A stretch of DNA of 64,000 nucleotides, the filler included, from Asterionella formosa (Eukaryota), in NCBI GenBank assembly GCA_002256025.1. It is 14 parts of 14 records of this genome, joined end to end, with 100 filler letters (N's around TTAATTAATTAA, not from the genome) between each part and the next. Parts side by side here need not be neighbours in the genome. Positions count along the whole stretch, not along the records: positions 1 to 17,042 come from NKIB01004600.1; 13 more parts are not named here. One strand, 5' to 3'. A model generated the notes under the pieces. That model was given only the letters and a program-made list of their open reading frames with translations. It did not search any database and had not been told where the DNA came from. The position numbers and the translations under genes were made by a program. Below are positions 4,986-57,438 of this stretch, piece by piece; within the stretch, counting starts at the first letter, position 1, and every line of letters begins with the position of its first letter.

Positions 4986-5903
4986 AGGCTGTTCTAATCA
5001 TTTTCATCATTTCCCCCTAGGAATCATAACTGTCCCCAAAAAAGGGGCTACAAAGCTTTTTAAAAAAATCTACGGGGGATAACTGCCACTTCTCTCCAGA
5101 TATGAGGTAATTACCATATCTGAATATAGATAGTAACCCTAAGTCAAGCAATCATGACTGTATATAAACATATGCAAAGTGGTCGTATTGGTGAAAGCTA
5201 AAAATATTTCCTTTAACTATTTTATTTAGTTGTATATACTGTGTAGATTGAAGTACATCATAAAATTATTTTGGGAAAAAACAGACCTTGAAATGTGTAA
5301 CTGTGGGGCCACGACCTTAATTTGAATTTTTTTGAAAATGTACTGTTAATGGCAACTTGATTTGAACTGAGTTTCATTCATTCCAAACTTGGCATTGTAT
5401 CACTAATTTGTGATCACAGTATATCATGGAGTAACACGGATCGTTAGCAGCAACAGCAGGCCAGCAACAAAAACTTAAATATATCTGAGCAGTAATATGT
5501 AAATGTGTAGTCTACATGAAAATAACCGGAATATAAAAATAAATATATCATGTGATGGAGCCTGTGTGTACATGCTACTGGTACCAGTACTGGGAGACTC
5601 GTCAACATGTTGTCATCAATGCATTGACCATGTTGATGCATTATTGGCATGAATCCATCAAAATGGCAAATGAGTCGCTGTGCCTTTGAGGTCAAATAGT
5701 ATATAACTGTATGAACAATACTACAATAGAGAAATAAATATAGATATATATTTAAAATTGCGTAAGAAATAAGGAATCTACAATTTAAAAGAATATTTGT
5801 CAATTTATAGTAGGAAGGCAAATAGAACTATTGATTTGTTTCAGCAATTAACTAGCTAAAGCTATGACATACTACAACTAGCCACAACGATACTATCATA
5901 TGC
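4986..5903 (-). mobile_element. Inverted, truncated copy of Harbinger MITE family A
   Basis: TAA|AGGCTGTTCTAATCATTTT TIR at 4986. 5316-5903 aligns by eye as the reverse complement of about 13845-14490. Confidence 0.75.
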
Positions 5904-5904
5904 C

Positions 5905-6725
5905 ATTAGGATTTGCAATAGTGGTGTGTGGCTAGAATTTGAATTATAGACGCCATTAGGTCAATCGATTGCACCAGTGGTGTTTTCGTGTTGCACTGTG
6001 ATGCTGATGTTGATTTTCCCTTCAACAAAATAAATTATTAAATTGGTGCTGGCATGTTAACAATTATTTTATCAGTGACAATAGTCATGATACACAGTAA
6101 TCAATGGCCATATCACTGAAACAGCATTGTCAGGCCTAACATGGCTGTAGCTAGTATTAGCTAGCTAGCGCCAGATATCTGTAACATCAAGCAAGTTGTG
6201 TTCATTTCTCTGCGACAATATGAATGTTGACATGGATACCATGGAAGATCCGGTAAAATTCTAAATGATCACTACAGACAGCATTGAGTTATACAGAGGA
6301 ACTAGGAGAAGATAAATAACTTCTTAAAATGAAGAAGACGGAGTGATTCAAGATGGACATCATGATGCCATCATGCCAGTAAAACAGGAAGGAAAAGATG
6401 TTTCTGAAGTGGTCTGCTCTACATTGGCTGGCTCATGAGGAAATTGTGGTAGTGCAATTGCTGGGATGATTGATCTCCTTACTAACAAAGTAATTGCCAC
6501 TGGGCGAATTCACGAACACGAAGTTGCCATTAGAGTTAGTAACAGTAGTCTGTAGGATGATGGGGCCGGTAGCACTTGGACCCTGTAGAGTAACATTCAC
6601 ACCCACCAAGTTGGCATCTCCAAAATCATTATTGTCGGTATTTTCCTTGATGCTTCTGGAGATTGGTCCAAGCAAAAAGTTACTTGGGGGATGCACTCAC
6701 ACTTAGAGCACTGCTGGGGCGCTCG
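5905..6725 (-). pseudogene. Decayed SdrD-B/Cna-B-like repeat protein fragment
   Basis: 6433-6696 encodes ENTDNNDFGDANLVGVNVTL...TTVTNSNGNFVFVNSPSGNYFV after an SAPSSA linker. A more degenerate second unit (ENTTGAID..., TTIANPNG) lies near 5905-6030. Stops and frameshifts are present. Confidence 0.6.
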
Positions 6726-7039
6726 TCAATGAAAAGAATTCAAAAACCGCCAGAAAGCTTGACATCAATCTCGCTATCAAACGCATCACTCAAATGATCA
6801 GAGAAATCACATACCCAACTGGATTGAGGGGTATAGGCGCTGTTGCTGAGCATCCTCATTATGAGAATCACTGGTGTCCTCATGATCATGATGGTGAACA
6901 AGAATGAAATGTCACAGTGGTCCAGCGTCAAGCATTAATATGCATTTAAGATAATTATGATGCTGTAAATCGAGCAAGGAATGTCAGCAAGATGATATAT
7001 GAATTTGCTTAAATGTGTAATGCCGGCAAGGTAATATGT

Positions 7040-7266
7040 GAATGTTTGATTGTCACTTTCATCATACAGCGCAAATTTTGTTTTCTCCAAATCAGCAATG
7101 TACTTGCCCAAAAACCCGACTGTACACAGCTCTGTTCCATCTTGGACAACCACAGCCTTCATCACCATCTGCAGCTCTTTCTCCTCACCAATCTCCACTA
7201 TTGTCAGCTTTGCCTGTTTGTGACACCACATAGGCTGAGTATTTCTCCATCTTGATGGGATGTCAT
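7040..7266 (-). pseudogene. Remnant of a stramenopile DGE..G....GRSC / DG.E.C.VGFL family protein (HIRAN-like, probably transposon-associated)
   Basis: MTSHQDGEILSLCGVTNRQS* then, in another frame, KAVVVQDGTELCTVGFLGK...LYDESDN. Family recalled from memory. Confidence 0.4.
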
Positions 7267-7699
7267 TTTCATGATGGTGTCCAACAAAATTATATGATGC
7301 TTTCTGGGACCTTCTTAGAATATAAAAATAATATGTTGTATTTTCTGCACATGTAAAATATTTGGGTTTGTAGCACCAGAGATATACTGAGGAGACAGGA
7401 ATGTGTGGAGGACAGAAGTATGGGATTTACGGCATGTGTTTTGGCATAGAGCAAAATTATGTCTACATTCAGCAACATAGATATAGCATAAATGTTTAAA
7501 TATCATTTTTGTTTGTTTAAAATGGAACTCTATCAATCTTGCACCAATTCCTATTTAATTCAAATATTCAAATGGACAATGAAATCTTGGGAATTCATAG
7601 AAGCAAACTCCTTGTTCCATGCCATTTTTACAACCCTAGCAACATTTTCTCCAAAATAGAGTTAAGCCAAGGGCTGCAACCTTAAACAAAGGGAAAAGA

Positions 7700-10600
7700 T
7701 TAAATGGCAAGAATAGACTTTGTCATGACACAATTTGTGCTTGTACAACAAAAACAAAGCCTTTGATAATAAATGAACCCCAAGTAATACCGCAATGTTG
7801 TCTTTAAGGCTGTCAAAGTTAGACTATCAGTATCATTGTGCATGCCTCTAAATGGTGCATAATGCGATTCTAGGCTCGTTCGATCCTCTAATGACAGAGA
7901 TGGTCTTGTTGCATGGAACGCATTACGAATGTGCTCTGTTTTGATATTTACATCACCACTACCGCCACTTCCCAAATAATCATGTACTGCTGCCAATTGT
8001 GCAGTGTCCACAACTGCCTTGAGATCTGCCGGGGACAAGTATCGGGAAGAGGTACTTGCTATTTCTTTGCACAGGGCTCCAGATTTCACAAAGCCCCTCA
8101 CTTTCTCGTCAACCTTTCGATTTCGAATAAGTTTAGAAAATACGTCAGTCCATTCGTACTCTGTCTCCGGAAGACCAATGTAAATATGCTTCTCAAGGCG
8201 TCCTGGACGAAGCAAGGCTGGATCAATCATACCAGGTCTTGATGTGGCAGCAACAACATAAACACGATCAAGGGTGCTTTCTACGCCATCAAGAAAGGTC
8301 AACAGTTGATTCACGACTCGATCTGTTACACCGGTAAGATCAGTCCCACGACGCGGGGCCAGAGCCTCAAATTCATCCAGAAATAAAAGTGATGGCGCAG
8401 CAGCTTGAGCACGTGCAAATAACTGGCGAACTTTATGCTCAGACGCACCAATGTACTTGTCCAAAAGCTCAGGACCGTGACAAGTAATGAGCGCCAAGTC
8501 ACATTCGCTCGCTAGGGCCGGCGCAATGAGGGATTTACCACAACCGGGTGGACCAAAGAGGAGAAGACCTCGAGGCAATTGTGTAGGTGCTTTTTCGTAG
8601 ATTCGGCGGTATTTTACGGGATGTAATATCGCAGATGCAAGTTGCTTCTTTGCTTCGAAGAGTCCACCAATATTATCCCATTTAAAAGCTAGGGACGTGG
8701 CTTCGCCTCGAATACCTTGCCTTGAAAATGGAATAAACCTTTCGACTGCAATGTTAAGTGAAGAATGGAAGGCGCACTCCTCGAATGCAGCTAGATTCGA
8801 ACATCTAGAAATCAGCATTTTTGAACGCAACTCATGGCAGACGATCGTTGCTAGTCGACCAACATCACCTGGTCGATATCCCTCGAGTCTTTTGATGATA
8901 TCAGGTGGTATGCGTGTGAATGGCACTTCCAAAAAGTGACGGATCACTACCGACAGCATTTGACCGATCTCGATTTTTCCTAAAGGAGGAAGAGGTATGA
9001 ACTCGAAGAGTCGATCATGGGGTAATGCGGTTGAGGCTAAAGACTTCGCCTCATTACATGTGATCAAAATCTTGACATGATTATCCAAGGCTTGTGCCAA
9101 CAAACAAAAGTGGTCGGCAATCAGTTTTGTTTGATCCAACTCAATTGGGTTTATTTGCAGGCTACTGATGCTACTCTCCCCGCTAGTCGCGGTAACGTGA
9201 TTCGGTATCAGACGATCAAGATTGTCGAGTACCAAAAGAGACGAACGCGAAGTTGAGGCAAGTTCGAAGACTGCACTCAGCTCTTCCAGAGTGTCTTGCA
9301 TCCGAATCTCCCCAGCTGACTGAAGTCTCTCGCAATCTAAGTAGACTGTTTGTCGAGATGATCGCAAACGAGATACAGCAGCGAGTACAAGTGAGAAGTG
9401 GGACTTCCCAGCGCCTTTTTCACCGTAGAGTATTATTCCGTCGCAGGAAAGTAAGTGCAATTGAGCATTCGACATCAAGTCTCGCAGTGGTTCAGTGACC
9501 ACGTCAGGAATGTCTGGCAAACAATTTAGTAAATCGCAGTTCGTTGGGGAAGTCAGCACTGCAAGATTATTTCGGCTGATAGACTCTTGAGTAGATGGAT
9601 TGGATTGAAGTGGAAGAGTTATGATGTCTTGAAAGCGGACTAAGTTATCATGTCCAAAAGATGAATTTGCCTGAGCGTGGATAGAGACCCGGTACAGACT
9701 ATTTATCGACATGGATACGCCTTCACTCCAAGGCAAAGGAATTATAGTGCCATCCGTAATGGGAAAACTCCCGAGACTTTCCGAAAGTACATTCATGGAA
9801 GACAGGTCGGATCGTATATTCTCATCGGCACCAGGAGTCAATGAGCTGGAGGAGTAAGGAGTCGAGACACAAGCAGGATATCGCCAAGCTGCCATTCTAC
9901 CATTTTTCAAATCGTGTTCAACTTTGATGGGATCGATAGAGATAATGGTTTTCCCTTGCTCCACGAGTTTCCTTGTATGGTTGAATGTTTGAGATTCTCG
10001 CTTTCTGCTCATAAGGTGAATAATCACCATTTCGTCAAGCGGTGCGATTCCGAGCTGAAGGCGTGTCAAATAATTCAAAGCTAAAATAAAGAGAAACGAG
10101 TTAATGACACGAACGCTGCAAAATGTAAGGCTGTTGTTTTCTCAGAATCAATTGGAGGTTTAATCGTCAATGAATATATAAATATATTTCAGAATTAGCA
10201 TGGTTTGTTCCTCATCGAAAACACAGCCCGCAAAGGATAACAACATCAAAATACTCACCAACATGACCCGTTAAGACCTCGTCCGAGGCCACGATCTGGA
10301 CAACGGCTTGTCTAGGTGTGTCAGACGCGCCGACTTGTGATCTCACAATGAATGCAATAGGGGGCGTGCCATCGTCGGCGATGACTTTCCAATCTGGTAA
10401 GGAGCGCTCCAATGTTTCTGTATGTGCCATGAGCGTAAATGGGGGTACCATTGGTCCATGAATAAGCTCGCGGGTGGCTAGGGCTTGCATTTGCGGAGAC
10501 CAATCGTCCCAAGAAGGAACGACGCGAAGCGGACAACTTGGTTGTGGCTCCATAATCTTGGGCCGTGGTTTGGGAATAACAATCACTTCTGTGGTCGCAA

Positions 10601-11366
10601 CCAGGCGGCAGCAGCCATAGTCGTTGAGAAAAGTTGAAGGTACGACGCGGACCTGGACAGAGTCCCTGTGTCCTACTGCCAGCGTTAGAGTTTGATTCGG
10701 GTAGACAACGGTGACTTGAGCCAGTAAGCCGCCACGTTCAAGGGATTCGGCATGAATCTCCAAGAGTTCCCAATCTTCTGTGGTTAAAGGCTCCATTTCA
10801 ACAGAAATAGCATCAAAAACTTCTGGAAGTGCCTTGACGAATGCAAATTGTCCTTCTACATTGTCAAGCTGGGAAGGTATTTCAATAACCCCTATAAAGG
10901 AAGCACATCGGGTGTAAGCCAGCAGGAATTCACAAAGATAGCCACGGATATCGCGCTATTGGACCTCAGAAGGAAGGCAGCAGTGTGGATATCAACATGT
11001 ATGCGTTCTGTGGTAGTGACAATTTTGAAACTGACTCATCTCTGGCCGGAAAAAAATAGCGAGCACAAATAACTTGAGTAACGTACCGTCACCTTCTAAG
11101 GATCCTCCATTGTATGATGAGTAGATGAAATCTCCGGAATCAAATACAATTTTGAGAGGAAGAAACTCAATGTTCCAAGATGAGGACGAAAGTATCGACC
11201 ATCCATTGGATGGATAAAGATGGTCCGTGGCTGTCAGTGCTGCATCCTCAAAAAGGTCTCGCGCTGTCCGAAGCGACAGGCGCGCGAACAAACACCACTT
11301 CTTCGATTCTCTGCTATCTCCTCTTAATTGTGATCTTGTTCGGACACGGAGTCGTCGTTCCGTCAT
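7700..11366 (-). CDS. PEX1: Peroxisome biogenesis AAA+ ATPase PEX1; exons 11366-11087, 10891-10259, 10080-7700
   Basis: PEX-1N motif EPLTTEDWELLE; D1 GEKGAGKS/VLDNLD; D2 GPPGCGKS/FLDEFE, GPELLDKYIGASE, DPALLRPGRL. Both GT-AG introns restore the frame. A possible third intron (7790-7681) would end the CDS at 7662. Confidence 0.92.
10136..10222 (-). ncRNA. Intronic box C/D snoRNA (snR53-like D' guide plus a second 18S guide)
   Basis: In PEX1 intron 2. Stem GTTTTC/GAAAAC, C box tcGATGA, guide CCATGCTAAT-t-CTGA (D'), C' TTGACGA, guide CCTCCAATTGAT-t-CTGA (D). Guides are complementary to the conserved 18S segments ATTAGCATGG and CAATTGGAGG. Confidence 0.85.
10962..11047 (-). ncRNA. Intronic box C/D snoRNA with two 18S rRNA guides
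   Basis: In PEX1 intron 1. Stem GGCC/GGTC, C box gaGATGA, guide ATTGTCACTACC-a-CAGA (D'), C' ATGTTGA, guide TGCTGCCTTCCTT-CTGA (D). Complementary to 18S GGTAGTGACAAT and AAGGAAGGCAGCA. Confidence 0.88.
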
Positions 11367-11917
11367 GCTAAGCCGATGGCATCTCGATCATGATTGAACA
11401 CGTCGAATAAGGAGAAAAGCGGAACAACCATTGGTCACACAAAAATGAGGATTTGCGTTCATTTCTTGGTCCCATGCAAACCTACTGCAGACGACTTCGT
11501 ATTGTATTAGGGTACCGGTAGTACCTGGTACTGTACGAAATTTATGTGGAAATGGAATTGTGATGGTGTATGTTATAGAATTGTCAGAGTGTGTCTGTTA
11601 GGCTGTTGATGTCGACAGGTGTCCGGAGACCAGGTAGTCTGAGGAATGTCCAAACGGAAATAGACAGGATTTATAAAGCAGAATGATACGCAAACGAGCG
11701 GCGCGAGAAAGATCTTGACCGATCATTCCAGGGCAGTACTGGAGAGCGCTAGAGTAGGGGCCATATATTTCAACATAGAATATGGTCGACAGTGGTAGGG
11801 TCTACCCGAGTTTTCAAATCGTCCAGTACATAGACACAAATACCGGTATACCTGGTACCCGATCATATCATGTTATAAAAATACCGGTGTCCGGAGTACG
11901 TACTTGGTACCCAGATA

Positions 11918-11997
11918 CCACCAAGTTGCGGTAGTTAAGCAATTTACCTACATTTTCCTTATAGTAAAAACCATCATTTATTACCGCAACTCCTATG
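11918..11997. mobile_element. Degenerate 80-bp TA-flanked mini-element (family C)
   Basis: TA|CCACCAAGTTGCGGTAGTT ... ATTACCGCAACTCCTATG|TA. Same TIR core as 13197-13563 and 14139-14234. Confidence 0.55.
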
Positions 11998-12157
11998 TAA
12001 AGGTAACCATCTGGTAGAGTACCAGGTATCCTTCTTACTCACTTACTATTTCGTATTCTTACCTGTACAAATACGTATGCTAGACAATACATACGCACTT
12101 TCTACATATATACCTGGTACCCCTGCTACCATGTACTAGGTACCAGGGTACCTGGTA

Positions 12158-12962
12158 CCGTAAACCCTGGTGTATGATATCCCCCCACGTACCTGTATCC
12201 CCCTTGGTTCACCTGGCGCAACACTCCCAAATATTTTATGTTTACAGAAAAAATTACAGCATATTATTGTATTCTATTTGTTAATACATTTATAGCATAA
12301 TTGCATTCTTACTGGTCAACATCATGAAACAACAATACAAGTGATGCCAATGACATTTGTGATGGCAATTTCCTTGGCCTGAGATATATTTCAACAGTCA
12401 AAGCTGCAAGTTGCAAGCTTGTTGTGGTGCGATTGACAAGCTGAATGCTACAAGCTCAGGCAGTGGTCATGCTGGCCTAGATATTTTCGGCTTGCCAGAA
12501 GTGTTCAAAGAATCATTTCGTCTGCTACCTCATGATGCAGAAATATTTCGCGCAGGTCATAATTCTGGTCCAATAGCTAATTATAGTATAAGTGATGTGG
12601 TTGCTGGCTTATATTAATATCCATCACAATCCAAGTCGTAGAACCTACACAAATTAATACCGCTGTAGGTTGGGTACAAAAGTGTACACACTCTAGGAAT
12701 TACTATAGATGCTATCACGAAACTTGGGCGCACCAGAGCACCAAAAAAAAAATTCTATTGATCATAGAAACTGTTTGAACCTAAAACAATAAATCTTTTA
12801 AAGTTGCGATTTATGTTTAGGACCATGGAGAAAACAGTGGTGAATTTGGTTTGCTCAGAATATTTGGCGATCAAAAAAGGGCCAATGTCTTGTACTCCCC
12901 TCTGAGTAATTCAATCATGACTGGTGTGAACATTGATGGGTGCAAGACATCATGTTTTACAG
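12158..12962. mobile_element. Possible TA-flanked Tc1/mariner/pogo-type non-autonomous element (family D)
   Basis: TA|CCGTAAACCCTGGTGTAT at left; right end reverse-complements to TA|CTGTAAAACATGATGTCT. Imperfect TIR pair. Confidence 0.45.
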
Positions 12963-13196
12963 TATACTATGCCTGTAATTATGTGTACATTTCATTTACA
13001 TTTGCTTATTCTTTATTATCCCTTTTTGCCTGGCTGTGCATAACATAAATAACTGCATTGTTGTTACCTCCTGTGTTATTTCTTCATAGAAAATATTCTT
13101 TAGAACGTCCAAGAAACCATGCATCCTTTACCAGAGGTTCATGTATACATACCGAGTTCGCAAAAAATTGATGTCACCATCAAGCAAACCAATCTA

Positions 13197-13563
13197 CTGC
13201 AAGTTGCGGTAATTTTTCTGAAATGGACAAAGTGATGCAGGATAGCAGGCGCTCAAAAAAATAGAGAATATCATCAATTTTCTCTTTGAATCGACAGTTT
13301 CATGACTTGTCAGTGAGGCAGGTTTATGATAATTAATTCGTCTAAACGCGGAAACATCAAAATGAGGAGGGCAGATAGCTGAAAAAGAGAAATGACAAAG
13401 TTACCCTGTTTGGAAGAATAAAATTAGCTTAAAAGCTATGTCACCAAGGGGTGATCATAAAAACGATTTTAAAGAATGAATTGATGACGTTTTCATGCTA
13501 ATTAAATGCCTGTCCTACATCATAATATCAATTTCAGCAAAATGCATGACCGCAATTTGCTGG
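13197..13563. mobile_element. TA-targeting MITE (family C), 367 bp
   Basis: TA|CTGCAAGTTGCGGTAATT ... ATGACCGCAATTTGCTGG|TG. The right TA is mutated. Confidence 0.7.
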
Positions 13564-13648
13564 TGAGTGCCTTAGACGGCATAGTACTAGTGACATCATG
13601 TCTATGAATTAATTTATCATCAGAACACTCTGGCGGCCTCAAACCTTA

Positions 13649-14526
13649 GGGCTGTTCTTATCATTTTGTCATTGGTCGTCATTGGTGCATCATTTCCGGG
13701 TTTTGTTTCGAAAATGGTGGTTTGTATCATATTTTTGTATCACCAATGAGTTTTTAGGTCTGATCATTGGTGTATCAGCCACTGATACAGTTTTTGGACC
13801 CCTGACCAATGCTGTATCAGTGATACAGCCATTGATTACTGTGTCATATGATAGTTATTGTTGTAGCAGTAGTTGTAGTTATGGCTCCAGTTGTTGCTGA
13901 AACACAAATCAATAATTCTGTTTGTATTCCTATAAATGACGAATATTTTTTCCATTCTAGATTCATAATTTCTAATGCAATTTAAAAGGCATATCTATTA
14001 TTTTTCTATTGCATTGTCCATGATATTATATTCAAGACCTCAAAGGCACAATGACTCGTTTGCCACTTTGATGGATAAATTTGAGATCAACACCATGGTC
14101 AACACATTGATGACAAGCTGTTTTCAAGTCTACCAGTACCTGCAAGTTGCAGTAATTGTGCTGAAACTAAAAGTTTAGCTCTCTTTATCCGATATTGAAT
14201 TTTTTATTTAAGCTAAATGACCGCAACTTGCTGGTACTAGCATACCGGTACGTGTAGTCTCTGTTAAAGAAATTGGATAATATATACCGGTTTGACTATG
14301 TCTATGTAAAAACTATATATATATATGTACTCTAATATATTGATATGTTCGTCGCTGGCCTGTCTCAGTTGATGGCCCTTGTTCCACCATGATACACTGT
14401 GATACAAATTAGTGATACATTTTTAACTCGAGAATGAGGGGAATTCAGTTCAAATCGATTTTTTTTACCGTTGCTGATACATTTTCATATGATGTGATAC
14501 TCTATCCAAAATGATGAGAACGCCCC
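13649..14526. mobile_element. Complete PIF/Harbinger MITE (family A), 878 bp, with a nested family C element
   Basis: TTA|GGGCTGTTCTTATCATTTT ... AAAATGATGAGAACGCCCC|TAA. 19-bp TIR with 3 mismatches, TWA flanks. Confidence 0.85.
14139..14234. mobile_element. 96-bp TA-flanked mini-element (family C)
   Basis: TA|CCTGCAAGTTGCAGTAATT ... AATGACCGCAACTTGCTGG|TA. 16 of 19 TIR positions match; TA duplication. Confidence 0.8.
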
Positions 14527-14740
14527 TAACGCCACGTTGCAAATTTTCCTCTCAGGATGGGATGACGGAGGTTGACACCAATCAGCTGATCCTAAGTCTT
14601 ATCCAAATATTCTCGTAGCATTCCTATTGGTAGTTCTCATACTCGCTGGACGTCATGACTTCTTCTTGAAACCCGGACTTGAAGGGAAGTGATCGAGATG
14701 GGATCCACTCATTCCTCAACCCCCTTGTCCACTTTTGCGT

Positions 14741-14760
14741 GGTACCAGGTACCTGGTACC
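14741..14760. repeat. Perfect 20-bp palindrome GGTACCAGGTACCTGGTACC upstream of a gene
   Basis: Identical to 2854-2873; about 120 bp upstream of ATG 14879. Confidence 0.9.
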
Positions 14761-14878
14761 CTGGCACAGTATACCGGTAGATAGAAGCACTTTTTCAGCG
14801 GCGTTGTCATCAAGTTCGCTTGAAATCCCTCATATATTTTTCTTCTCTCAATTGCCTCAAACGAACGCAATTTGGAAA

Positions 14879-15465
14879 ATGGATCAAGTTGCTGCCATAC
14901 TGGGAGTCTATCTTCCGAATCTCAAGGCTAGAACTGCAGTAATGCAATTCCCATGCAAGGTTTCTCATCGGAGCTGTAGCCAAATGTGGGGAAATCATCG
15001 AGACTCAATGCAGCTCATCAAACAAGAAAACCACAGCGCCGCCGACGACGACACCGCGTCGACTTTATCTGCCAGCGACAGTGATCTATCTTTTTCTGGA
15101 AGCATTGTCACATTCGCTGACGTAGTGGTGACGGAAGTACACCTCCGTCCCTACACGACAATGGAAGAAAAATACTCTCTCTATTACAACGACTACGACT
15201 ACTCGGAGTTTCGAAGGGAATGTTTTTCCGGAAAGAGGCGCAACCGTCGTGTGCGCTTTGCTGACTCTGTTGTCTCTGATGTTCATATTATTTCTGTAAC
15301 GGAGAATACAGCGCAAATGTTCTACACTGAATCCGAACTACAAAAGTAAGTTTTGATTTTGCCGGAATATTGTATGCTTTGTTTGGCACATTTCTGACAT
15401 TTTTGATTTTCAGTTTCTTGGATGAATTCGTTGCCTCACTTGACAAGGGATTTGGATTTGATTGA
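14879..15465 (+). CDS. Hypothetical protein with two V.F...V..V / (Y/F)Y...e modules and an RVxF motif; exons 14879-15345, 15414-15465
   Basis: GTAAG...TTTCAG intron (68 nt) restores ELQNFLDEFVASLDKGFGFD*. Motifs IVTFADVVV and RRVRFADSVV. Confidence 0.75.
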
Positions 15466-17042: not shown

Positions 17043-17142
17043 NNNNNNNNNNNNNNNNNNNNNNNNNNNNNNNNNNNNNNNNNNNNTTAATTAATTAANN
17101 NNNNNNNNNNNNNNNNNNNNNNNNNNNNNNNNNNNNNNNNNN
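17043..17142. other. Artificial contig linker (one of 13)
   Basis: 100-nt N-TTAATTAATTAA-N spacer with stops in six frames. Also at 34169, 35329, 36489, 37649, 54771, 55931, 57090, 58249, 59408, 60567, 61725 and 62883. Confidence 0.98.
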
Positions 17143-23809: not shown

Positions 23810-24489
23810 TTTCCACACTGGCAGGCTGGGTTATTAATCAGAGGAGCTAATGCATACCTCAGAGCTAATGTATACCTACCTCCCTGAGGAGAGAGACGCG
23901 CATCTATTTGCAAATAACAAGAACCGTCGGTAAGCAATTTTCAAGACCTCGCTTTGTCGTTTTCTGTTACATGATGTAGTAGGGGTAGGGATAAGCACAG
24001 TAGGGTGAATTGCATCCAGTAGACTAGACTACTGGTATTAAACGCACCAGTTGGTACCTGGTACCAGGGTAGAGGGTAGACTACCGTTACCTACTCTAAT
24101 GTATGACACTAGCTAACAAATTCATTTACATTTCTCTAAGAAAGCAATGTATTTCGTAGAAATATAGCTCAATCAGCAAAAGAAATAGCTACAGCCTCCA
24201 CCATGCTGGACCCAGGGGTATCATGCAGCTTTTTCTAGCAATGTCTCCGTGTCAGGAGGATGAGCGGAAACTATATGAGCCATATATAAAAACTATATAT
24301 ATATGAATATGCATTGTTCCTACGTGGGTACTAATACTCGTACCGGTATTGCCAGTACCGGTAACTATTTAGTTTGTTAGGGCACAGAGATTTGCCAACA
24401 ATGACGAAATAGTATTCTCATTCCGTTGTTTCATTTATTACTAGGTCCCCCCCCCCAGCATTAGAATCAACAAAACACAAGCACTTGCC

Positions 24490-34168: not shown

Positions 34169-34395
34169 NNNNNNNNNNNNNNNNNNNNNNNNNNNNNNNN
34201 NNNNNNNNNNNNTTAATTAATTAANNNNNNNNNNNNNNNNNNNNNNNNNNNNNNNNNNNNNNNNNNNNCTACTGCTAATAGCTGTACCGGTAGTACTAGG
34301 GGTTCCGAGGACTCAGTCAATTATGAACATCAACTGAGAACAACAACAATCAACAATATACCTATGGAAGCGACCCACTGCCACATCAAAACATC

Positions 34396-35328
34396 ATGTC
34401 AGACAATGAAGAAATAGTTTGTGCATCTCAAGATAGATGCATGGTGAAGGAGCTTCCAAGGTCAACTGCACATAACTGCCCGGGATGTGGGTATAGCATT
34501 CATGCTCTTTGCGGCCATTTGCATGAAGAAGCAGATATTCAGTTCAAAACAACATGCTTCCATTGCTATGAAAAGTTCGGTCGCGCCCTGATGGATCCAG
34601 ATGATGCAACTGCATTGCAACAACTCCAACAAGATGAAGAGAGGAGACATGATTCCAATCAAGGACAAGAGGAGGGCATGGTAGTACTTGCACATGTCAA
34701 TATATTGGATAGCATTTTACCACCAGAGATTGACAAACAAGGCAGCACTAGTATTAGAGAACGTGATACACGAAAAGCGAAGAAGGAAGCAAATAAAATG
34801 AAGTCCTTACAGCTCATGAATTTAGCAAATATCAGAGGGAACACAAGAGCAAAATCAACAATGAGCCGGCACCAGTCTGAACATGAAGTCTTTCTGTTAT
34901 ATCTTTATAAACATGAGGACCAGCTACTACTAGGACCGGAGATGCTATCGCAAATCAGATATATCACTGATGATATTGACAACATTCCCATTCATATGAA
35001 GAAAACAAGATCAGTGATACGCAGTTTTCTTGAAAGGGAAGTCTGTACAGGATTGCATCCAATTAAATTTGAGGACTTAAAGCCTACAGACTTCGCAAAG
35101 TATCTTGGGACCCTCAGTAATCCAGTGACAGGCTGTCTACTTAGTCAGAAGATGTATAAAAACAAGAAAACATCACTTTACAACCTGTTTAAGAAGTATA
35201 AGATGAAGGTTACAGACGACTTTGATGATGAGCTGAAAGATCTAATTGCTGGCGTCAAACGAATTGCAAGTAAGGCAAAATAAGATGGGATGGATAGCCT
35301 TGAGGAAGGAAAACGTGAATTGACAATC
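34396..35328 (+). mobile_element. N-terminal half of a Crypton-like recombinase ORF with a Cys/His finger; in-frame stop at 35281
   Basis: HNCPGCGYSIHALCG...CFHC; ...AGVKRIASKAK*DGMDSLEEGKREL resembles the G.KR...EGK..L motif preceding the CryptonS catalytic domain. Confidence 0.6.
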
Positions 35329-35428
35329 NNNNNNNNNNNNNNNNNNNNNNNNNNNNNNNNNNNNNNNNNNNNTTAATTAATTAANNNNNNNNNNNNNNNN
35401 NNNNNNNNNNNNNNNNNNNNNNNNNNNN

Positions 35429-36488
35429 GCACTCAGGATGACTCAGACCCAAATGTTAGAACTACAAGGTCTGGAAGAGTCTCAAGACCACCATCAAAAC
35501 TAACTATGGTCCAAAATCATTTGCATACCCAAGCACACTGTCGAGAAGAATACACGACTGATAATGCGAAAGTGATCGCAAAGACAATGTGTTATATGAA
35601 TGAGATATGTATCGATAAAGAAGCATTTCACTTTGTTCAGTCATACAGCTTAAGGAAAGGCCTCAAGAAATTTGGCCAGAAAGGAAGAGACGCTGCTTAT
35701 AAGGAAATGAAACAACTACATGATAGAGTTGTATTTGAACCGATTAGGATTGAAGACCTAACTGATATCGAAAAGCGACGTGCAATGGAAAGTCTAATTT
35801 TTTTGGTTGAAAAGAGAGACAAGAGCATTAAAGGCAGAGCATGTGCCAATGGCAGTTCGCAACGTGAATACATGGAAAGAGATGAAGCAGCTAGTCCAAC
35901 TACCATGACTGAATCTGTTATGATAACAGCAACAATTGATGCGAAGCAAAATCGCGATGTTATGACTGCAGATATACCCAATGCATTTGTGCAAGTGGAT
36001 ATCGATGAGAAAGAAAAAGGGGAACGAATCATTATGAAGATTAGAGGTTTGCTTGTCAATATGTTGACAGAACTCAGCCCCGAGACTTATGAAAATTATG
36101 TTGTTTATGAAGGGAACAACAAGGTCCTATATGTTAGGATGATCAAGGCATTATATGGCATGTTACAGTCATCATTATTATATTATAAGAAATTTCGGAA
36201 GGATATTGAGTCAATTGGATTCAAGGTAAACCCATATGATCCATGTGTTGCAAATCGCATTGTTAATGGCAAACAGCACACAGTTACTTGGCACGTAGAC
36301 GATTTGAAATCAAGTCACGTGGACAGCAAAGTGAATGATCAATTTTTGGAATGGCTCAAAAAGAAATACGCTTCTGACGAAATTGGTGAAGTCAAGGTCA
36401 TGCGTGGAAAGAAGCATGATTATTTGGCTATGACGCTAGATTACTCTATTCCAGGAGTGTTGAGGGTGGACATGACCAAATATGTGAA
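35429..36488 (+). mobile_element. Ty1/Copia (CoDi-type) reverse transcriptase fragment
   Basis: YSLRKGLKKFG, KGRACANG, DIPNAFVQ, KALYG, NPYDPCV, WHVDD, HDYLAM. Confidence 0.93.
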
Positions 36489-36588
36489 NNNNNNNNNNNN
36501 NNNNNNNNNNNNNNNNNNNNNNNNNNNNNNNNTTAATTAATTAANNNNNNNNNNNNNNNNNNNNNNNNNNNNNNNNNNNNNNNNNNNN

Positions 36589-36725
36589 CCGTACATGGCA
36601 GCCTCTACAGAGCTGCGACAGAAAATAATAGGGAAAAACATAGTACCACTATTACCGTACATGGCAGCCTCTACAGAGCTGCGACAGAAAATAATAGGGA
36701 AAAACATAGTACCACCATAACCGTA
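36589..36725. repeat. 66-bp tandem repeat, at least 2 units, cut by the contig edge
   Basis: CCGTACATGGCAGCCTCTACAGAGCTGCG... at 36589 and 36655; a third start CCGTA at 36721. Confidence 0.92.
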
Positions 36726-36926
36726 GGTGCTACTTAAAGGTGATGATAAAAGATGTAGACGTACTACCTGGTACCGGTAGTAACTCGTCAGCCTGGCTAA
36801 TTATCGCGCCAGTTAAATTCATAAAAGCAATATTATGATAACTACCGGGTAGTTATCATAAGAATCAACACATCACGAGCATTTTAACAAACTACGTGTT
36901 AACTTAACTTTTGCCAAACCACCACC

Positions 36927-37648
36927 ATGTGGGCCAATCGACACAATTCTGCATCGTTGTCTGATACAGACTCCATACCAGACAATCCTGCATCGGATGG
37001 ATACGACGATTATCAACTTGAGGAGTATAATGAATCGGAAGAGAGTGTCAAAGGAGATGGGAGGTTGACGGCAGAACAAGAAAGAGATAAACTCCAAATT
37101 CTATTGTCTGAGAGTACACAGGAAATCAAGCGCCTACGTGAATTAGCAGCTGAAAACAACCGTTTAACAATTGGAGTAGTAGGTGGAATTGGCCGGTGCA
37201 AACATTGGACAAACCTTCTGGCTAGCTGGGTCAGAGAGGAATTGTTTCCAAAAGTTAAATTCGTCACAGGTGATTATGATTTGGAAATGAGGGAACCCAA
37301 CAGCATTGCTTGTGCTGTTCGTTATCATTTCCCATCACTCAGAAATGGTACTGACGAAGAGTTTGAATCATTTTGGTTCACATATAAGTGTGACATCAAC
37401 AAAAATATGTCTGAAAAAAGGAATGCTGTTTCAACATCAATCAGAAAGGGTTTCAAAAGTAAGTTCAAAATGAGGTGTCGTGCTTGCTGTTGGCTTCCTG
37501 TTCCAAACAAGAATACTTAACTATAAAAACAGGAATGGTTGAGGATGGAAAGTTACAGTTCCTTTCCCGGAATACGATTGTTCAGTCCAGGACAGAACCA
37601 CCAGATGTTGGTAAAGTTGAAGAGCATCCCTTCATTATTCTAGTGAAT
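36927..37648 (+). CDS. Partial hypothetical protein (VRE.LFP..KF ... FW ... KR family); exons 36927-37458 and 37533-contig end
   Basis: GTAAGT...AACAG intron keeps the frame. Possibly repeat-associated. Confidence 0.55.
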
Positions 37649-39570
37649 NNNNNNNNNNNNNNNNNNNNNNNNNNNNNNNNNNNNNNNNNNNNTTAATTAA
37701 TTAANNNNNNNNNNNNNNNNNNNNNNNNNNNNNNNNNNNNNNNNNNNNTCTTCTGCTCTTAAGTCCTCGTCGGATCAATCCACCGGGGATTTCTGAAGAT
37801 TAATAATCCTTTCCTATCAACTTCTTCAGCTGTAATGCGCTTTCCATTGTATCAGCAGTACCCTTGTAATGTTCCGGTACGTGGATTCAGCTCCAGGATT
37901 GTCCGTTTACTAGCAGAAATAGTTTATGTTCAAATATTTTAGCAAGCAGTGAGGGGTGAGTTTCCCATTTATGCGAGTTTACATCATCATCCTACCACAT
38001 ATTTGTGATTCACTGCTCCATATAGTATACATAAGAAAATGCTGGTCATGAGCAAACCAAGTATTTATACCGTTATGTAGAAGGAACACACCCAACCGCA
38101 AGAGAGGAAGGGCGGTGTGTGCTGTTGCCGTTGGGGATCCCCGGTGTACGTCGCGACATTTATCCCTGTCGTACCATCTAAACTTAGTCTTGGCGAGAGC
38201 ACCACTGGTCGTTGAGGAAGTAACAGTATACGGCTACCTAATTCAAAGTGCAATACTGCCTGACTACCGGTATCATTTATATGGCCAGGTTGGATGTTCA
38301 TATTTTGGTTTGTCCAGTCAAGTCATCTCGCAGATAAATGCATTTAAAATGTTAAAAAGTATCATTTCATTCACACCCCCTTCAGGAAGACGACGATGCA
38401 CAAATCTTATTTCTTTGCGATGGCTTTTTCTGTCATTTTTAACTTTTGCAATCGACGCACCGACAGGTGGTATTATGCATTTTTTATTTGTTATCACGAC
38501 GAGCAATGATTTTTTAAAACTTACATACCTCTCTCTACACTGGTAACTTGTTATATAGATGAACTATTATACCCACCTGGTAACCAGTACTGGTACCCGG
38601 GTACCGGCAGACTATCAGCTGAGCACTGTCAATATGTATGTACGCGGAGTAATAAATAAACTTCCCGGTATGCTGTTACCGCGGTAGTTCGGGACTTATC
38701 AAAGTACCGGTAAGTCATTATGTCCCGGTCTTGATATTTATTTATGATTCGTGCTGGTACGACAACGGTTGGATAAAACTACCTGTATGATTACCGGTAG
38801 TGGGGTATAAATATCAGTACCGTATGGTTAGAGGTGTCGTACCTGGTAACAGCTATATATGAATCGCTGTGCATGGACGGTGTATCTGGAGTCATTTGTC
38901 GACCGAATAGCTATGACCAACAGGGTAGTACATGATACCTTGGTGCAAATCGTTACAAACTGATGGCTGCTCCTCATATTGAAGGGATAATTATGCACGC
39001 AACAAACAATTCGTGGCATTTTGAAGTTGCGGCCTACTACCAATGAGCATGCATGTTTAGTTTATCATTCTTGCAAAAAAAAAGTAAATTAGGCATTCAC
39101 GTACGACTTATTTTCTGTCCCCTACTGCCCTCGCTGTCATTACATTCGCCCATCAACACTTTGCTCCACTGCGGATGGCGACACGATGCTTCGATTTGCA
39201 AATTCCATGGTATGTATTGGTCTAGTCTACTGGAATATCCTGTATACTTACAGTTTCACAGAATTATTGTATCGTGGTTTATGCAGAAGTACCAGTATGT
39301 TTACATACCAGTTCTACGCTGAGTAAGAACGATGAGGACTCGAAAACGAGTTACCAGGGGTGTACACATGTTCTATGGCTCCTCTAGGTCTAGTCTATAG
39401 TCCACTGGTAAAAGATTCGTCGTTTATGTTCACATAATATTTCCTTCTTGCACAATAGATTAATCAAATCCTTCAGGCCAACAACTATTCCCTGGAAGGC
39501 ATAAATCTACAAGTCGAAGAATCATCAGGTGGACTGCCTAAACCAACCATACTTCATCATCATCATCATC

Positions 39571-43946: not shown

Positions 43947-45048
43947 GATTGGATGGAACTCGTATGGCACTATTCTACAACGGTATGCTGGCGTGTGATA
44001 CACCGGTCGTCTGCTCCTTGTGGAAGAGTCTACCGGTATGTACTAGTGGGCAGAAGGAGAAAATGGGATGTGGTACGACGGTAGGTAATATAAATGAAAG
44101 AATGGACCGAAAAGAACATGTAGCATCAGAAACCCTCACTTTCATCACCTCGACCTATTTACATGTAGCTACCTGGTACTACTGGTATAACGGCATGCTG
44201 TACGCTGGAATACAAGTGTGTGCGTGCATTTGTACAAGGCAGGTAAACTCTGGTACCTGGTACCAGTACCATACAGTACATAGTTGATGAAAACCACAAC
44301 AAAATAGGAGCAAAGAAAGAAAAACAATCAACAAAGCATCAACGTTTTCACTGGCCGCCAACAATGTGAAGCACCATCATGCAGAGAAACGTATCGTGAC
44401 GGTTGGCAGGCAGGTTATTGTCGTTGTCGATCGTATGTATGTATCGTGAACTTTTTTTAAATTACCAGGTACCAGGTACCACCGCTAAAATTACATAAAT
44501 TACCTACCATACATAGTTTGTACAGCCAGTTGTTGTGAATAAATTGTTTACATTTTCATGTACCAGGTACCGGTAGGGATTACCGTACGTCTGATCTACC
44601 ATGTACCGGTACTCGACATTGCTGATATGTACAGCAACATGGCTCCAATATCTGATGTGGTCTACAAATTATTTATTGCATAGACTCTACCCTGTTGCAT
44701 CTTCACACAGCACTGGGACCAGGTATGGTACCTGGTACCTGCAGGTAACAGTATCTTATATATAGGCTGACTGTCATAAATCCATGATACATTCAAGTTC
44801 TGGCACACCGCACATACATAATATAGGTACAGTACATATTGGTCAAATGTTTCTTCCAACATACCTCCACTTGCTGTCCACGTTCATCATTGAATGACTT
44901 TACCAGAGGTATGCTGCAATATACCTCTCCTAATAATTACCGTTATGTATGAATAATATGACAACAGCAAGCAATAAAATATATAGAAAAATTAATTTTG
45001 TCAGGATCAAGAACAAGAAGGGAAGAAACAACAGCAAGATCAAGAACA

Positions 45049-48022: not shown

Positions 48023-48071
48023 GGTACCTGGTACCAGTACCCCGGTTGTGTGGTACCTGGTACCAGGTACC
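48023..48071. repeat. Stacks of TA-CCTGG/CCAG/CCAGG-TA units
   Basis: Read directly; about 120 bp upstream of the ORF starting at 47903. Confidence 0.9.
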
Positions 48072-48361
48072 GTCAACAGTAGACGACCGTACACATTATG
48101 TACTCGAGCAACTTGTTTTACAGACAAGTAGAATTAGTTTGCATAGTATAAGAGATGGTTACAGTTGACTACGCCAAAACCATATATTCTAATCCGAACC
48201 CGCAACAACCAGTATAATGGTTTATCATTATTCGACAACAAAATGTTGTTGTGATGATACAGAAAGCCACACAATCGAAAGTTTAAGAAAAAACCCACAC
48301 CTTTCATATGCTTGAGTGCTTTTACCTACCTATGTGTTATCTTAGTGAGCACGACAGCGTT

Positions 48362-49627: not shown

Positions 49628-50617
49628 TTTATTGCCCTCTGTTTTTGAAATCGTTTGATGGATGTGGAAGCTTTGACGATTCTACTCCGAGTCGCCAAGG
49701 ATCAGCATACGTAGTGTTGACTCAAACCCTGACCTGACGTACCGTAGGCGAAACCAGGAACATCCATATGTACTTAGAGCAGACATCTGGTAGATCGAAA
49801 GAATAGTTCTGATGTTGAGAATCTCTGATATCATTATGGCTGCGTCATGGTCATTACCGGCAATTCGGGGCCGGCTGTAACTAGCGGTATATTCATTGGG
49901 ATGGATGACCGAACCTTTTTTACTTCGTCCAATAGCCAACGGACACGTAAACATAGATGTATTCATTTTATTACCACAGGGAGAAGTCATAAGAGGAGAA
50001 TAACGAAGCTCACAACGGACGAAGAGAACATCGCCTGATTCTTTGTTTCCATGATACGCACTACAAACCACTACCGGTATATGGGTAAGCAATTTGACTA
50101 CGACCGGTATATAACTGGTAAAGAACCAGGTCTCCCTATTAGAACCAAGACTGACGACTCCGTAGCGCAGTCATTAGTTGATAACCTACAAAAGTCGATA
50201 CTTCGCTCCTTCCTAATGTCTCCTGAAAGAGTCTACAACCGGGTACGTATGCGAACAGAAGGAAACGCGAGCTCGCTCGTTGCAGTACTAATCGTGGAAC
50301 AAGCACGAGGTTATACCAGATTTGTCATACCAGGTATATAGTGTAGGAGCACAGAAACGCAAAGAACACCAGCAGAGACAAAACAAGCAGACAGATACGG
50401 GACCAGGGTACCAGGTAGTATCAGAACCACCGGTACATTACATTTTTTATTTAGAAAGGTATGGGTCATGGCACTTTTGGGGATTGACACACCGGTATGT
50501 ATATGATACCGGTATATCAATATTCCCGGTTACCATGTCATTCTTTTTAGGGAAAGATGCATCACCATTCTTCCCTTTTTTGTTGTTGGTAACAATATAC
50601 TTTACCTTCGTTCGCAT

Positions 50618-54763: not shown

Positions 54764-54870
54764 GGTGTAGNNNNNNNNNNNNNNNNNNNNNNNNNNNNNN
54801 NNNNNNNNNNNNNNTTAATTAATTAANNNNNNNNNNNNNNNNNNNNNNNNNNNNNNNNNNNNNNNNNNNN

Positions 54871-55930
54871 GGCCCTGAAGTGTCCACGAAAATCCGTTCA
54901 CCGGGTAGTACAGCCTGTACAGTCGACACTTTTGAAACTGCCTTTGCTTTCGCCTTTGCCTTAGAGCATCCGTCACATGACCGGAGGGTACCAGTAAGTT
55001 CTATCTTCAGTGCTTTGAACGTAGCACGTAGTGCGGCTTCCCCAATATGCCCGTAGATATCGTGTGCCTCGTTGATATCCTGTGACTTCATTTTGTCCTC
55101 CCCACTCATAACTGTATGGGTGTTTGTGGACAAGTTTTTGGTACTATCGGCACCCTGGGGCAATGGGGCAATAACCATGGATACGACATCGGCATAACTC
55201 GCGCGACTTCCTTTAAAATAATAGAGAACTCCATTGGTCTCTCTGTTAAATGAAATATGTCCTCCACGACCTTTCTTAACGGTCATAGTAGACCCTGTGA
55301 CTGAAAGGTCAAAACCGTCGCGGATTAGGACGCCCAAACTGACGATGTTCTTGTGAAACTTAGGCGTGTACAGGACATCCTTCAATGTCATAGTCTTCTC
55401 TCCGTTGGTGAGCTTGATGTCACCGCGTTTTGTGCATTTAATTTCCGAGCCATCGCCGACGACAACTGTGACACTGACTGGGCGTACATTTGTCATACCG
55501 ACGTCACTCATCGTGATATGGGCGGTAGCTCCAGTATCAGCGAGCCAATTCTCCTGTGGGGCAATAGAGCGAGGAGCAACAGCAGAGGCACAAAACTCTT
55601 TATTATTAAATTTTACATCACAATCATCAATAATTTCCTCGCAAATACCGACAAAAGTCCACTCTTTATCGTCGTTCTCGTTGTACTTGTCATTCATATC
55701 TTGTTTCTTTTCGTTTGCTTCGATGTCTTCGTAGTCAATTGCACACATGCCAACAAACATGCCGGTCTCTTTCGTTGTAGTACGTTCTCGTTTGGGTTCA
55801 GGGCAATCTTTTGCGATATGTCCCGCATGCTTGTTGCAATTGAAACACTTGACGCCTTTCGGAGGAGGCCTGTTTCCGTCGCCGTGTGTCTTGTTCTTGA
55901 CTCGACAATCGGCTGCCTTGTGTCCTTGCT
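54871..55930 (-). mobile_element. Ty1/Copia gag-pol fragment (zinc knuckle, protease, pre-integrase)
   Basis: CFNCNKHAGHIAKDC, WLADTGATAH, HDIYGH...CDGC, ERIFVD. Confidence 0.92.
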
Positions 55931-57325
55931 NNNNNNNNNNNNNNNNNNNNNNNNNNNNNNNNNNNNNNNNNNNNTTAATTAATTAANNNNNNNNNNNNNN
56001 NNNNNNNNNNNNNNNNNNNNNNNNNNNNNNCTGCAAAGGACTTTTTATACATGGGAGGACCCCTTCAATTTCTTCTTTTCCTTTCTACAACTGCGATCGT
56101 TGCTACAGCATTGCCTTGGTGGCTCGCATGGTTTGTGACGTCGGCTATGTTTATTGTAGCCTGTGCTATTCGTCTGTCAAATGGTGCCATCAAATCTTTT
56201 TTCTTCAAGGAAAATATTGAAAAAGATACCCCTTAGTGAGGAGGCAAAGAGGAACCCATTGACAACTTAGGGTCACTTTAGTGATCACTACAACAAGGAG
56301 CATCATTTAGCAATTTGTTTTTATGTGTTTTAACATTAATCATTTGGTTTAAGCCGTTGAGAAGCACATTAGCAGCTATGATCATACTACCACTTAATTA
56401 GTTTTGGTATCCATGATTGTTCAGGGTTTGTCTAAATTGGCTTCACAGAGTAATTCATTACTGTGTTACCAATTGAATCACCTGCTGCTACTAGCAATGC
56501 TCTCCTCAATGCCACTTCCATTGTTTCATAGCCGGTACTACCGCACCATTACGAAATTAGCGTGCGCTTGCCATTCTTCATTCAATCTTTCCCTTAGTTA
56601 TTCCTTTTGTTTCCAAAAATGCCTTTGCCCTTTGGCGATCCATTCATTTCCCCTTGATTGTTCAAAAGTGATTTCAACTACACCTTGCCTCCTTTCATCT
56701 CACTTTCCTAGATTCTTCAGAGCACCATTGCTTCATTGTGGCTGCTGCCATAGGTCCCTTCTTGCTCTTTGCCGTGTTACATTCCAATATTGAAATGTGG
56801 AGTCATTGGTGGATGAGCCTGCCATATGTCAAGTTGATCTAGTTGGGCATTGGCAAGGTCTACATGAACTGGCATGGGCTCCATAGTACAGGTTGAGATA
56901 TTTGTTTCATCCATATTGGACCACATAGAGACGCAGGAGATCCTTGTATGAAAACAATTGACAACATAGTGATTTTTAATCAACAACTATTTCCATGAAA
57001 GTTCCGCTCAAATTGCTCAATGTACTTTCATCAAAAGGAGAACCATAATTGTTACATAATCCATTTGTACAATGTATGGAATAAGTGTANNNNNNNNNNN
57101 NNNNNNNNNNNNNNNNNNNNNNNNNNNNNNNNNTTAATTAATTAANNNNNNNNNNNNNNNNNNNNNNNNNNNNNNNNNNNNNNNNNNNNAGGCGTCTCTT
57201 AGAATCTCCATACTATCTGCAGCAGCATATACATCTTGTTCGCTGAGCCCTCCGAAAGCGCTTTCGTCATCAAAAGGATTACTCCTGAAGTTTCTACCTT
57301 GCCTATTGAGAACAGGCTTCTTCGC

Positions 57326-57406
57326 ATGATTATGTTAAAATAATACAATGATAATAAAATACGATAAAATATGTACGCAAGTGTTACCAAGACATCATAG
57401 AATATA
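57326..57406. repeat. Dispersed AT-rich repeat, inverted copy of 61080-61160
   Basis: TAACACTTGCGTACATATTTT(T)ATCGTATTTTATT shared between two contigs. Confidence 0.75.
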
Positions 57407-57438
57407 CATCCATGCTACTACATTCTGTATCGCTAGAA

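Follow-up and report, generated by a model that had tools for sequence, protein, structure and literature searches.

An occupied site and a possible excision scar at one TA in two paralogous repeats, and the tie of a MITE family to stacked TA-delimited palindromes in Asterionella formosa DNA

Two inverted paralogous copies of an old repeat of about 600 bp (family A) differ at one TA within the 64,000-nucleotide stretch of DNA that was analysed (the window): one copy carries a 96-bp non-coding hairpin element belonging to a family designated C, and the other carries TA-CCAG-TA. The link between family C and stacks of TA-delimited CC(W)GG units is well supported, and the units may be either products or targets of the element. 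A footprint origin of the site is plausible, and comparison of the two copies suggests, at a probability that we place a shade below even, that TA-CCAG-TA in the 5-kb copy is the remainder of a lost family C-type element.

The window comes from the nuclear genome of a microbial eukaryote with few introns. Its long ORFs match PEX1/AAA, PI3/PI4-kinase, E2F/DP, triose-phosphate transporter, ion channel, leishmanolysin and CCT chaperonin proteins, and the PEX1 ORFs are split by one clear intron of ordinary type (GTGAGT...TTGCAG, about 10258-10116, minus strand). Positions 5001-15000 are present in contigs from 20 public runs of 15 studies, labelled as algae, freshwater, lake and river metagenomes; Rfam gave no families within the window. 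Contigs from four public runs were aligned to the window at 80% likeness, with a single-copy contig depth of 743 in run X1, 32.7 in X5 and 5-7 in X6 and X7. Contigs at single-copy depth skip 94 bp at 5636-5729 (three runs) and 118 bp at 12295-12412 (four runs), which represent either allelic indels or closely related paralogues. Cassettes of 44 N, TTAATTAATTAA and 44 N recur with a period of 1,158-1,160 bases at 17043-17142, 34169-37748 and 54771-62982; these are masks over the data and have no biology, and the stretches beneath them are copia-like retroelement ORFs (RVT_2, Pol_BBD). Enrichment of TTAATTAA, considered as a second scar type, was rejected because this word belongs to the masking cassette.

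An earlier sequence-only reading described 5316-5903 as an inverted paralogue of about 13845-14490, and both blastn and MAFFT bear this out.

5316-5905, plus strand: 5-kb copy of family A, a repeat of ~600 bp, 73-77% identical to the 14-kb copy (blastn and MAFFT).
13842-14490, minus strand: 14-kb copy of family A, inverted (blastn and MAFFT against the 5-kb copy), inside a TA-flanked 878-bp unit at 13647-14528.

Overall, the copies are about 75% identical. Comparison of the window with itself by blastn aligned 5587-5905 with 14139-13842 (74.8% over 322 columns, E 1e-44) and 5359-5484 with 14456-14335 (73.0% over 126 columns, E 4e-12), and the mean column identity of the two copies in MAFFT was 77%. 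These are the only two copies within the window that cover the site of interest; a third, at 1-107, is cut and ends short of 5576-5595. The self-comparison returned just 11 self-matches, none of them informative on empty versus unit states at other paralogue pairs. Scanning metagenomes with a 15-mer common to both copies, a pattern too short for this use, gave 118 loci, all due to chance, and none of the 118 resembles family A or family C in blastn. Family A may be the interior of a larger TA-inserting element with GGG ends, since the 14-kb copy is enclosed by the TA-flanked 878-bp unit with its inverted ends (GGGCTGTTCTTATCAT / GGGGCGTTCTCATCAT, 13/16 matching). A second insertion difference between the copies is a segment of ~186 bp at 5906-6091, which lies in the 5-kb copy between ...CTATCATATG and ACACAGTAATCAATGG; those two abut in the 14-kb copy, and stack units are absent at the edges of the segment.

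The letters previously claimed for the site in both family A copies were confirmed by direct reading. From 5574 to 5599 the 5-kb copy reads GC TA(5576) CTGG TA(5582) CCAG TA(5588) CTGG GA GACT. The minus strand of the 14-kb copy reads GC TAG TA, followed by the 96 bp of CCAGCAAG...CAGG (14234 to 14139) and then by TA CTGG TA GACT. The right anchor, TACTGG(G/T)AGACT, is identical between the copies at 11 of 12 positions and the left anchor, ATGCTA, at 6 of 6, with weak homology (about 60%) further left. With both anchors aligned, the TA-CCAG-TA unit and the element of the homologous sequence fall on one and the same TA.

5576-5595, plus strand: stack of three TA-delimited 4-nt units, TA CTGG TA CCAG TA CTGG GA (direct reading).
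5582-5589, plus strand: TACCAGTA, scar of a lost element or unoccupied target unit, aligned to the place of the 96-bp element.
14131-14138, plus strand: TACCAGTA unit adjoining the 96-bp element, common to the 5-kb copy, where it is TACTGGGA at 5588-5595.
14243-14250, plus strand: TACCGGTA unit confined to the 14-kb copy; TACA stands at the aligned place in the 5-kb copy (5568-5573).

The difference between TACCGGTA at 14243-14250 and TACA at 5568-5573 is a third unit-sized difference, no more than 40 bp from the site. The word TACCAGTACTGG, with at most one mismatch, was matched 6 times, against 0.19 expected. When the element and one TA are subtracted, the 14-kb copy becomes TAG TA CTGG TA, and the 5-kb copy has six more bases at that TA, CCAGTA, in keeping with the form of a Tc1/mariner-type scar. 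The sequence-only reading took these to be the element's first four bases between duplicated TAs; TA-CCAG-TA does stand at 5582-5589, but the description is valid only if the element starts at CC. An alternative boundary, in which a core CAAG...CTTG lies between direct CTG repeats, would assign CCAG to the target. The further proposal of a 4-nt plus TA excision footprint is upheld as regards homologous sites, a TA-flanked element with terminal inverted repeats (TIRs) and a TA-4nt-TA unit, whereas excision as the origin of the unit is only plausible. Among the contigs listed for the four runs, none spans 5576-5595 or 14100-14250, and no indel at 5576-5595 is among the 12 of 352 listed.

The 96-bp insert is a real element, with two possible sets of boundaries and two relatives nearby.

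14139-14234, minus strand: hairpin MITE of family C, 96 bp, as read with a TA duplication; inverted repeat 11/12, TA at 14137-38 and 14235-36.
14143-14230, minus strand: the same element with alternative boundaries, core CAAGTTGC...GCAACTTG with a direct CTG on both sides.
14140-14142, plus strand: left CTG, the three bases immediately preceding the core; belongs either to the inverted repeat or to a 3-bp target-site duplication.
14231-14233, plus strand: right CTG, a direct repeat of 14140-14142.
13197-13562, plus strand: long family C relative with a 360-bp core, CTG + CAAGTTGCGGTAAT ... ATGACCGCAATTTG + CTG.
11916-11999, plus strand: decayed 80-bp family C relative, TA CCAC CAAGTTGCGG ... 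CCGCAACT CCTATG TA, among stack units.

As in Stowaway-like MITEs, the 96-bp element has TIRs (CCTGCAAGTTGC and CCAGCAAGTTGC, 11/12 matching), and it is small, non-coding and multi-copy in the four public runs. Its arms are 75% complementary over 48 nt, and its DNA fold of -20.2 kcal/mol compares with -10.08 +/- 2.59 for shuffled sequences (z -3.91; 0 of 200 shuffles as good). The ends of family C have the short form CC(W)GCAAGTTGCGGT, and we know of no nameable element family that matches ends in CCWG. Inner parts of the relatives are unrelated, as in MITE groups with just transposase-binding ends in common. The outer flanks are TA/TA at the 96-bp and decayed copies and TA (left)/TG (right) at the long copy, and paralogous contigs have GTA...TAC. 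A two-part inverted-repeat pattern for the family found 1 unrelated phage locus in viral contigs and 0 loci in genome contigs, and an 18-mer search found 2 phage matches, both due to chance. Phage contig L119 contains, at 361-500, several copies of the palindrome ATTACCGCAACTTGCGGTAAT, which look like operator sites and whose likeness to the MITE inverted repeat is one of chance. A candidate mini-relic of family C at 12403-12419 was rejected; it lies across the edge of the 118-bp indel of the four runs, and a match with one mismatch is no better than chance would give.

The ends of 14139-14234 also resemble splice signals (CCA/GCAAGT on the left and ACTTGCAG/G on the right, with slashes at the junctions), and splicing there would leave TACCAGTA in the RNA, the same word as at 5582-5589. 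The idea of an introner was discarded: its ends are splice-like, but none of the window copies lies in an ORF, and the one clear intron is ordinary.

Evidence for the link between family C and the stacks comes from contigs of the four runs. Summed contig depth over 13867-14187 in run X1 reaches 141,761, against 743 for single-copy DNA, depth being no exact measure of copy number. Many contigs stop at the left edge of the element, 14136 (55, 43, 25 and 36 in the four runs), with unmatched parts that end in GTACCTG, or at the right edge, 14237 (29, 31 and 32 in the three runs listed), with unmatched parts that begin with CAGGTAC; beyond these edges the unmatched parts agree just in the letters nearest the element. 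From these loose ends it follows that most other copies lie between stack units, as ...TACCTGG-TA-(element)-TA-CCAGGTAC.... In single contigs the end of the 96-bp element continues directly into the stack at 14736-14760 or the beginning of the long relative. The connection of family C with the motif stacks, put forward in the sequence-only reading, is thus strong, with element ends that run into ...GTACCTG-GTA(element)TAC-CAGGTAC....

The units themselves are far more frequent than chance predicts. Against shuffled windows, TACCWGGTA occurs 43 times (0.23 expected) and TACCGGTA 45 times (0.36 expected), both about 100-fold above expectation, and TACCGGTA is the commonest 8-mer in the window. 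TACCAGTA is no chance word: both strands together contain 17, the expectation is 1.57, and none of 100 shuffles attains 17. For TACCWGGTA and TACCGGTA, too, every shuffle stayed far below the observed count. Among words of the form TA-x-TA in the 64 kb, compared with a first-order Markov model, only CCGG (45 vs 0.34), CCAGG (19 vs 0.16), CCTGG (24 vs 0.18), CCAG (8 vs 0.77) and CTGG (9 vs 0.66) stand out. The 4-nt units CCTG and CAGG are barely raised (3 and 1 vs about 0.7), such that CCAG plus CTGG number 17 and CCTG plus CAGG number 4, and 3-nt units (TA-CCW-TA and TA-WGG-TA) are not enriched (6, 3, 1 and 4 vs 4.4, 2.9, 3.0 and 4.3). No column in the flanks of the 45 TACCGGTA sites has a 50% majority, which indicates that the units are isolated small insertions rather than pieces of a longer repeat.

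Units fall in 56 clusters, often with a 7-bp step, separated by TA and of mixed types, e.g., TA CCGG TA CCAGG TA CCTGG TA at 2848, and stacks of at least three units make up a minority of window units. They are scarce in long ORFs, which contain 2 of 45 TACCGGTA sites and 0 of 43 TACCWGGTA sites despite covering 32% of bases and 22% of TA dinucleotides, and they are also abundant within retroelement-rich DNA at 57-59 kb. Clusters in short intergenic spaces lie upstream of ORFs or between divergent ORFs (24030-24363, 44170-44742, 48023-48074 and 50328-50514) and, from this position, could affect promoters.

Simple slippage does not describe these stacks. As a control, 84 (TACCWGG)n loci unrelated to the window were fetched from bacterial genome contigs. 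The bacterial heptanucleotide arrays have the same word as the window stacks, (TACCWGG)n, but are homogeneous and lie beside other heptamer arrays, with TACCGGTA in only 2 of the 84 loci, whereas the window stacks are mixed. Neighbouring units had the same or a different W in 4 and 5 cases, respectively, in the window and in 194 and 20 cases in the 84 bacterial arrays (Fisher p 0.0011), and units of 4, 5 and 6 nt are combined within window stacks. Mixed W and mixed unit lengths argue against simple slippage arrays, and arrays of one repeated unit, the mark of a slippage microsatellite, are not what the window stacks contain. No match to the stack word was found in viral contigs. The bacterial loci (L120-L203) come from many phyla and often place (TACCWGG)n beside (TACCCGG)n, (TACCAAG)n or (GATACCT)n; several bacterial metagenome-assembled genomes (MAGs) have at least five loci of the (TACCWGG)n type.

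Interpretation of the units as excision scars accounts for both the units and their flanking of the element. The setting would be a small hot spot within the old ~600-bp repeat in which CC(W)GG units are punctuated by TA, and one TA of this hot spot bears the 96-bp non-coding hairpin element, with ends CCWG...CWGG, in the 14-kb copy and TA-CCAG-TA in the 5-kb copy. Following the Tc1/mariner model, insertion at a TA would have duplicated that TA, and a transposase from elsewhere would then have made staggered cuts of presumed geometry, leaving the last 2-4 bases of the element on the flanking DNA. End joining would give TA followed by CCGG, CCWGG or CCAG/CTGG and a second TA: the direct CWG at both ends would supply three pairing bases after a staggered cut and produce exactly CCWGG, blunt loss of W would produce CCGG, and retention of one end would produce CCAG or CTGG. 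Every scar would make new G-TA-C sites for further copies, with scars accumulating at a 7-bp step. The units would thereby be products and not targets, and the lost element may have been inherited or independently inserted; a strong G-TA-C target preference is a requirement of this mechanism.

This scar interpretation is favoured because the TACCAGTA unit coincides exactly with the TA that holds the element in the paralogue and because joining ends of the form CC(W)(G)...(C)(W)GG would be expected to yield the enriched TA-x-TA words. It is also favoured because TACCGGTA units are isolated and arrays are mixed in unit type, and because units flank most element copies in contigs of the four runs and avoid long ORFs. 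Against it, a boundary that fits equally well turns CWG into a 3-bp target-site duplication, leaving the 5-kb copy as the empty site, and in 3 of 3 copies the two ends have an identical W when read on one strand (T/T, T/T and, in the decayed copy, A/A), which a perfect inverted repeat would not give. The canonical one-overhang 3-nt scars, TA-CCW-TA and TA-WGG-TA, lack enrichment, and CCAG/CTGG far outnumber CCTG/CAGG, yet both intact copies have one end of each kind. The family A copies are ~25% diverged, and a young element would require a second independent insertion, and its loss, at the same TA. The rows listed for contigs of the four runs include neither a plain-TA allele or paralogue nor an occupied 5-kb site. 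Finally, no transposase was found among the 46 ORFs scanned of the 67 window ORFs of at least 110 aa, and no PIF-type transposase or second ORF with matching ends was found among those scanned.

The scar model can be extended to the stacks as a whole, as self-seeding arrays in which excision would leave TA-CC(W)GG-TA and recreate the preferred G-TA-C target, with later copies landing in old scars and adding 7 bp per cycle. We regard this extension as tentative and on the unlikely side. If it holds, the scars of one transposon family would head the list of over-represented 8- and 9-mers in a eukaryotic genome (~1.6 per kb here), and the units would mark intergenic DNA and promoters as a countable record of past transposition.

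Footprints of related form are known from other elements. Minos, a member of the Tc1 family, leaves four terminal bases plus TA, to which the 4 nt plus TA at 5582-5589, the form proposed in the sequence-only reading, are similar; unlike the Minos footprint, 4-nt units are a minority here (17, against 88 of the CCGG and CCWGG classes). According to published accounts, Tc1/mariner and Stowaway elements leave overhang bases between duplicated TAs (PMC2874221, PMC3878927, PMC4561436). Family C resembles Stowaway and Tc1/mariner MITEs, as described there, in being short, hairpin-like, non-coding and present in many copies, with TIRs and TA on both sides, and in having a homologous site with what may be a few terminal bases between two TAs. 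It differs from them in the enriched units, which join both ends into palindromes (CCGG, CCWGG) where a single overhang would be usual, and in that family C has no known transposase and an insecure TA duplication, with CWG as an alternative.

A Stowaway element in intron 4 of the Triticeae beta-amylase gene is described as repeatedly inserted and excised at one site, with occupied and empty states and several putative footprints recognized by sequence comparison (PMC1925063). The site in family A is likewise interpreted by comparing sequences. The Triticeae states are ordered on a gene tree of many orthologues, whereas only two paralogues and no outgroup are available here, and, unlike at the Triticeae site as reported, the units here stack into arrays and occur genome-wide (PMC1925063).

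The order of events may instead be reversed, an account that we hold possible but doubtful. The core CAAGTTGC...GCAACTTG (14143-14230) would have inserted, with a 3-bp CWG duplication, into the centre of TA-CCAGG-TA in the 14-kb copy; the 5-kb copy would never have been occupied, TACCAGTA would be the ancestral unit minus one G, and the stacks would be preferred targets of family C. For the two copies alone, insertion into an empty target would be more economical than excision, as the simplest history is one insertion plus small indels (3-nt and 1-nt), and its alignment is slightly better (40.5 to the TA-CCAGG-TA pre-insertion site vs 39.0 for the empty site of the TA model). In 2 of 2 intact copies the core CAAGTTGC...GCAAYTTG is bordered by CTG as a direct repeat (14140-42 and 14231-33; 13197-99 and 13560-62), the appearance expected of a 3-bp target-site duplication, and the pair is perfect in the long copy, 13197-13562, where one side departs from the proper TA/CC context (TA-CTG... 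...CTGG-TG). The decayed third copy has end trinucleotides CAC/TAT, in which the central base agrees and the outer letters mismatch. Because both intact copies are oriented alike internally, CTG/CTG could also stem from inheritance of an imperfect inverted repeat. GTAC lies outside CTG on both sides in nearly all paralogous contigs, as expected for insertion at the centre of a unit, and a CWG duplication inside a TA-CCWGG-TA unit predicts the same flanking letters as a TA duplication. The scar and empty-target histories would leave identical letters at every copy seen, and they differ in what stood first.

Two features of the window fit an empty target poorly. The roughly 100-fold excess of TACCGGTA and TACCWGGTA, like the origin of the units, would be left without explanation, and most copies would have to occupy the middle unit of stacks of at least three units, which are a minority of window units. 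A CWG duplication also differs from TWA, the usual target duplication of PIF/Harbinger elements. Tourist-like PIF/Harbinger MITEs such as mPing are described as making a 3-bp duplication and excising precisely through microhomology (PMC4561436), and precise excision of this kind would restore TACCWGGTA. If CWG is the duplication, family C would share with mPing a 3-bp duplication with a central W, a small inverted-repeat element and exact restoration of the target, but would differ from that description in that the duplication is CWG and not TTA/TAA and the target is a hugely over-represented 9-bp palindrome (PMC4561436).

Loss of the element without a transposase appears improbable. Both copies would have inherited the element, and its body would have gone from the 5-kb copy through replication slippage, or through a microhomology deletion, between CAG direct repeats at the hairpin base, with a 1-nt loss afterwards. 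The element and its flanks do form a long hairpin, with a stem that reaches into the flanking units (the -20.2 kcal/mol fold, z -3.91), and a deletion from one CAG to the other would leave TACCAGGTA, which exceeds the observed word by one G. Nevertheless, an extra 1-nt deletion is then required, the element must predate ~25% divergence even though its duplication and inverted repeat are nearly intact, and TACCGGTA units and isolated units are left without explanation.

A low probability is also given to a motif unrelated to transposition, a functional non-coding palindrome such as the site of a dimeric factor with half-sites TACC/GGTA, for which the copy differences would be ordinary indels and the MITE would have landed by chance: units are restricted to intergenic DNA, often just 5' of genes (24030-24363 before the PI4-kinase ORF, 44170-44742 between divergent ORFs and 50328-50514 before the leishmanolysin ORF), and a half-site spacing of 0 or 1 would be typical of dimer sites, but such a motif does not account for strict TA punctuation with a 7-bp step and 4-nt variants, gives no reason for most copies of one MITE family to abut units on both sides, and does not fit the plentiful units in retroelement-rich DNA at 57-59 kb.

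For a DNA transposon it is nothing unusual that one paralogue is occupied and the other bears a possible scar; the scar-or-target stacks may be new. A keyword search, not a search by meaning, found no published account of TA-punctuated palindromic stacks that are top genome words and flank most copies of one MITE family, although such accounts could exist; the unit strings themselves matched only primers and barcodes in the literature, among the matches listed. In the genome of this freshwater microbial eukaryote, TACCGGTA and TACCWGGTA form stacks at TA that are associated with the termini of a single MITE family. Were the units scars, they would provide a rare direct count of excision events and an example of a transposon building its own landing sites. 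Were they targets, family C would be a MITE that selects a palindrome of unusual length and specificity, and it would be left to explain how these palindromes arose. On either reading, promoter-proximal DNA is loaded with GTAC-core palindromes.
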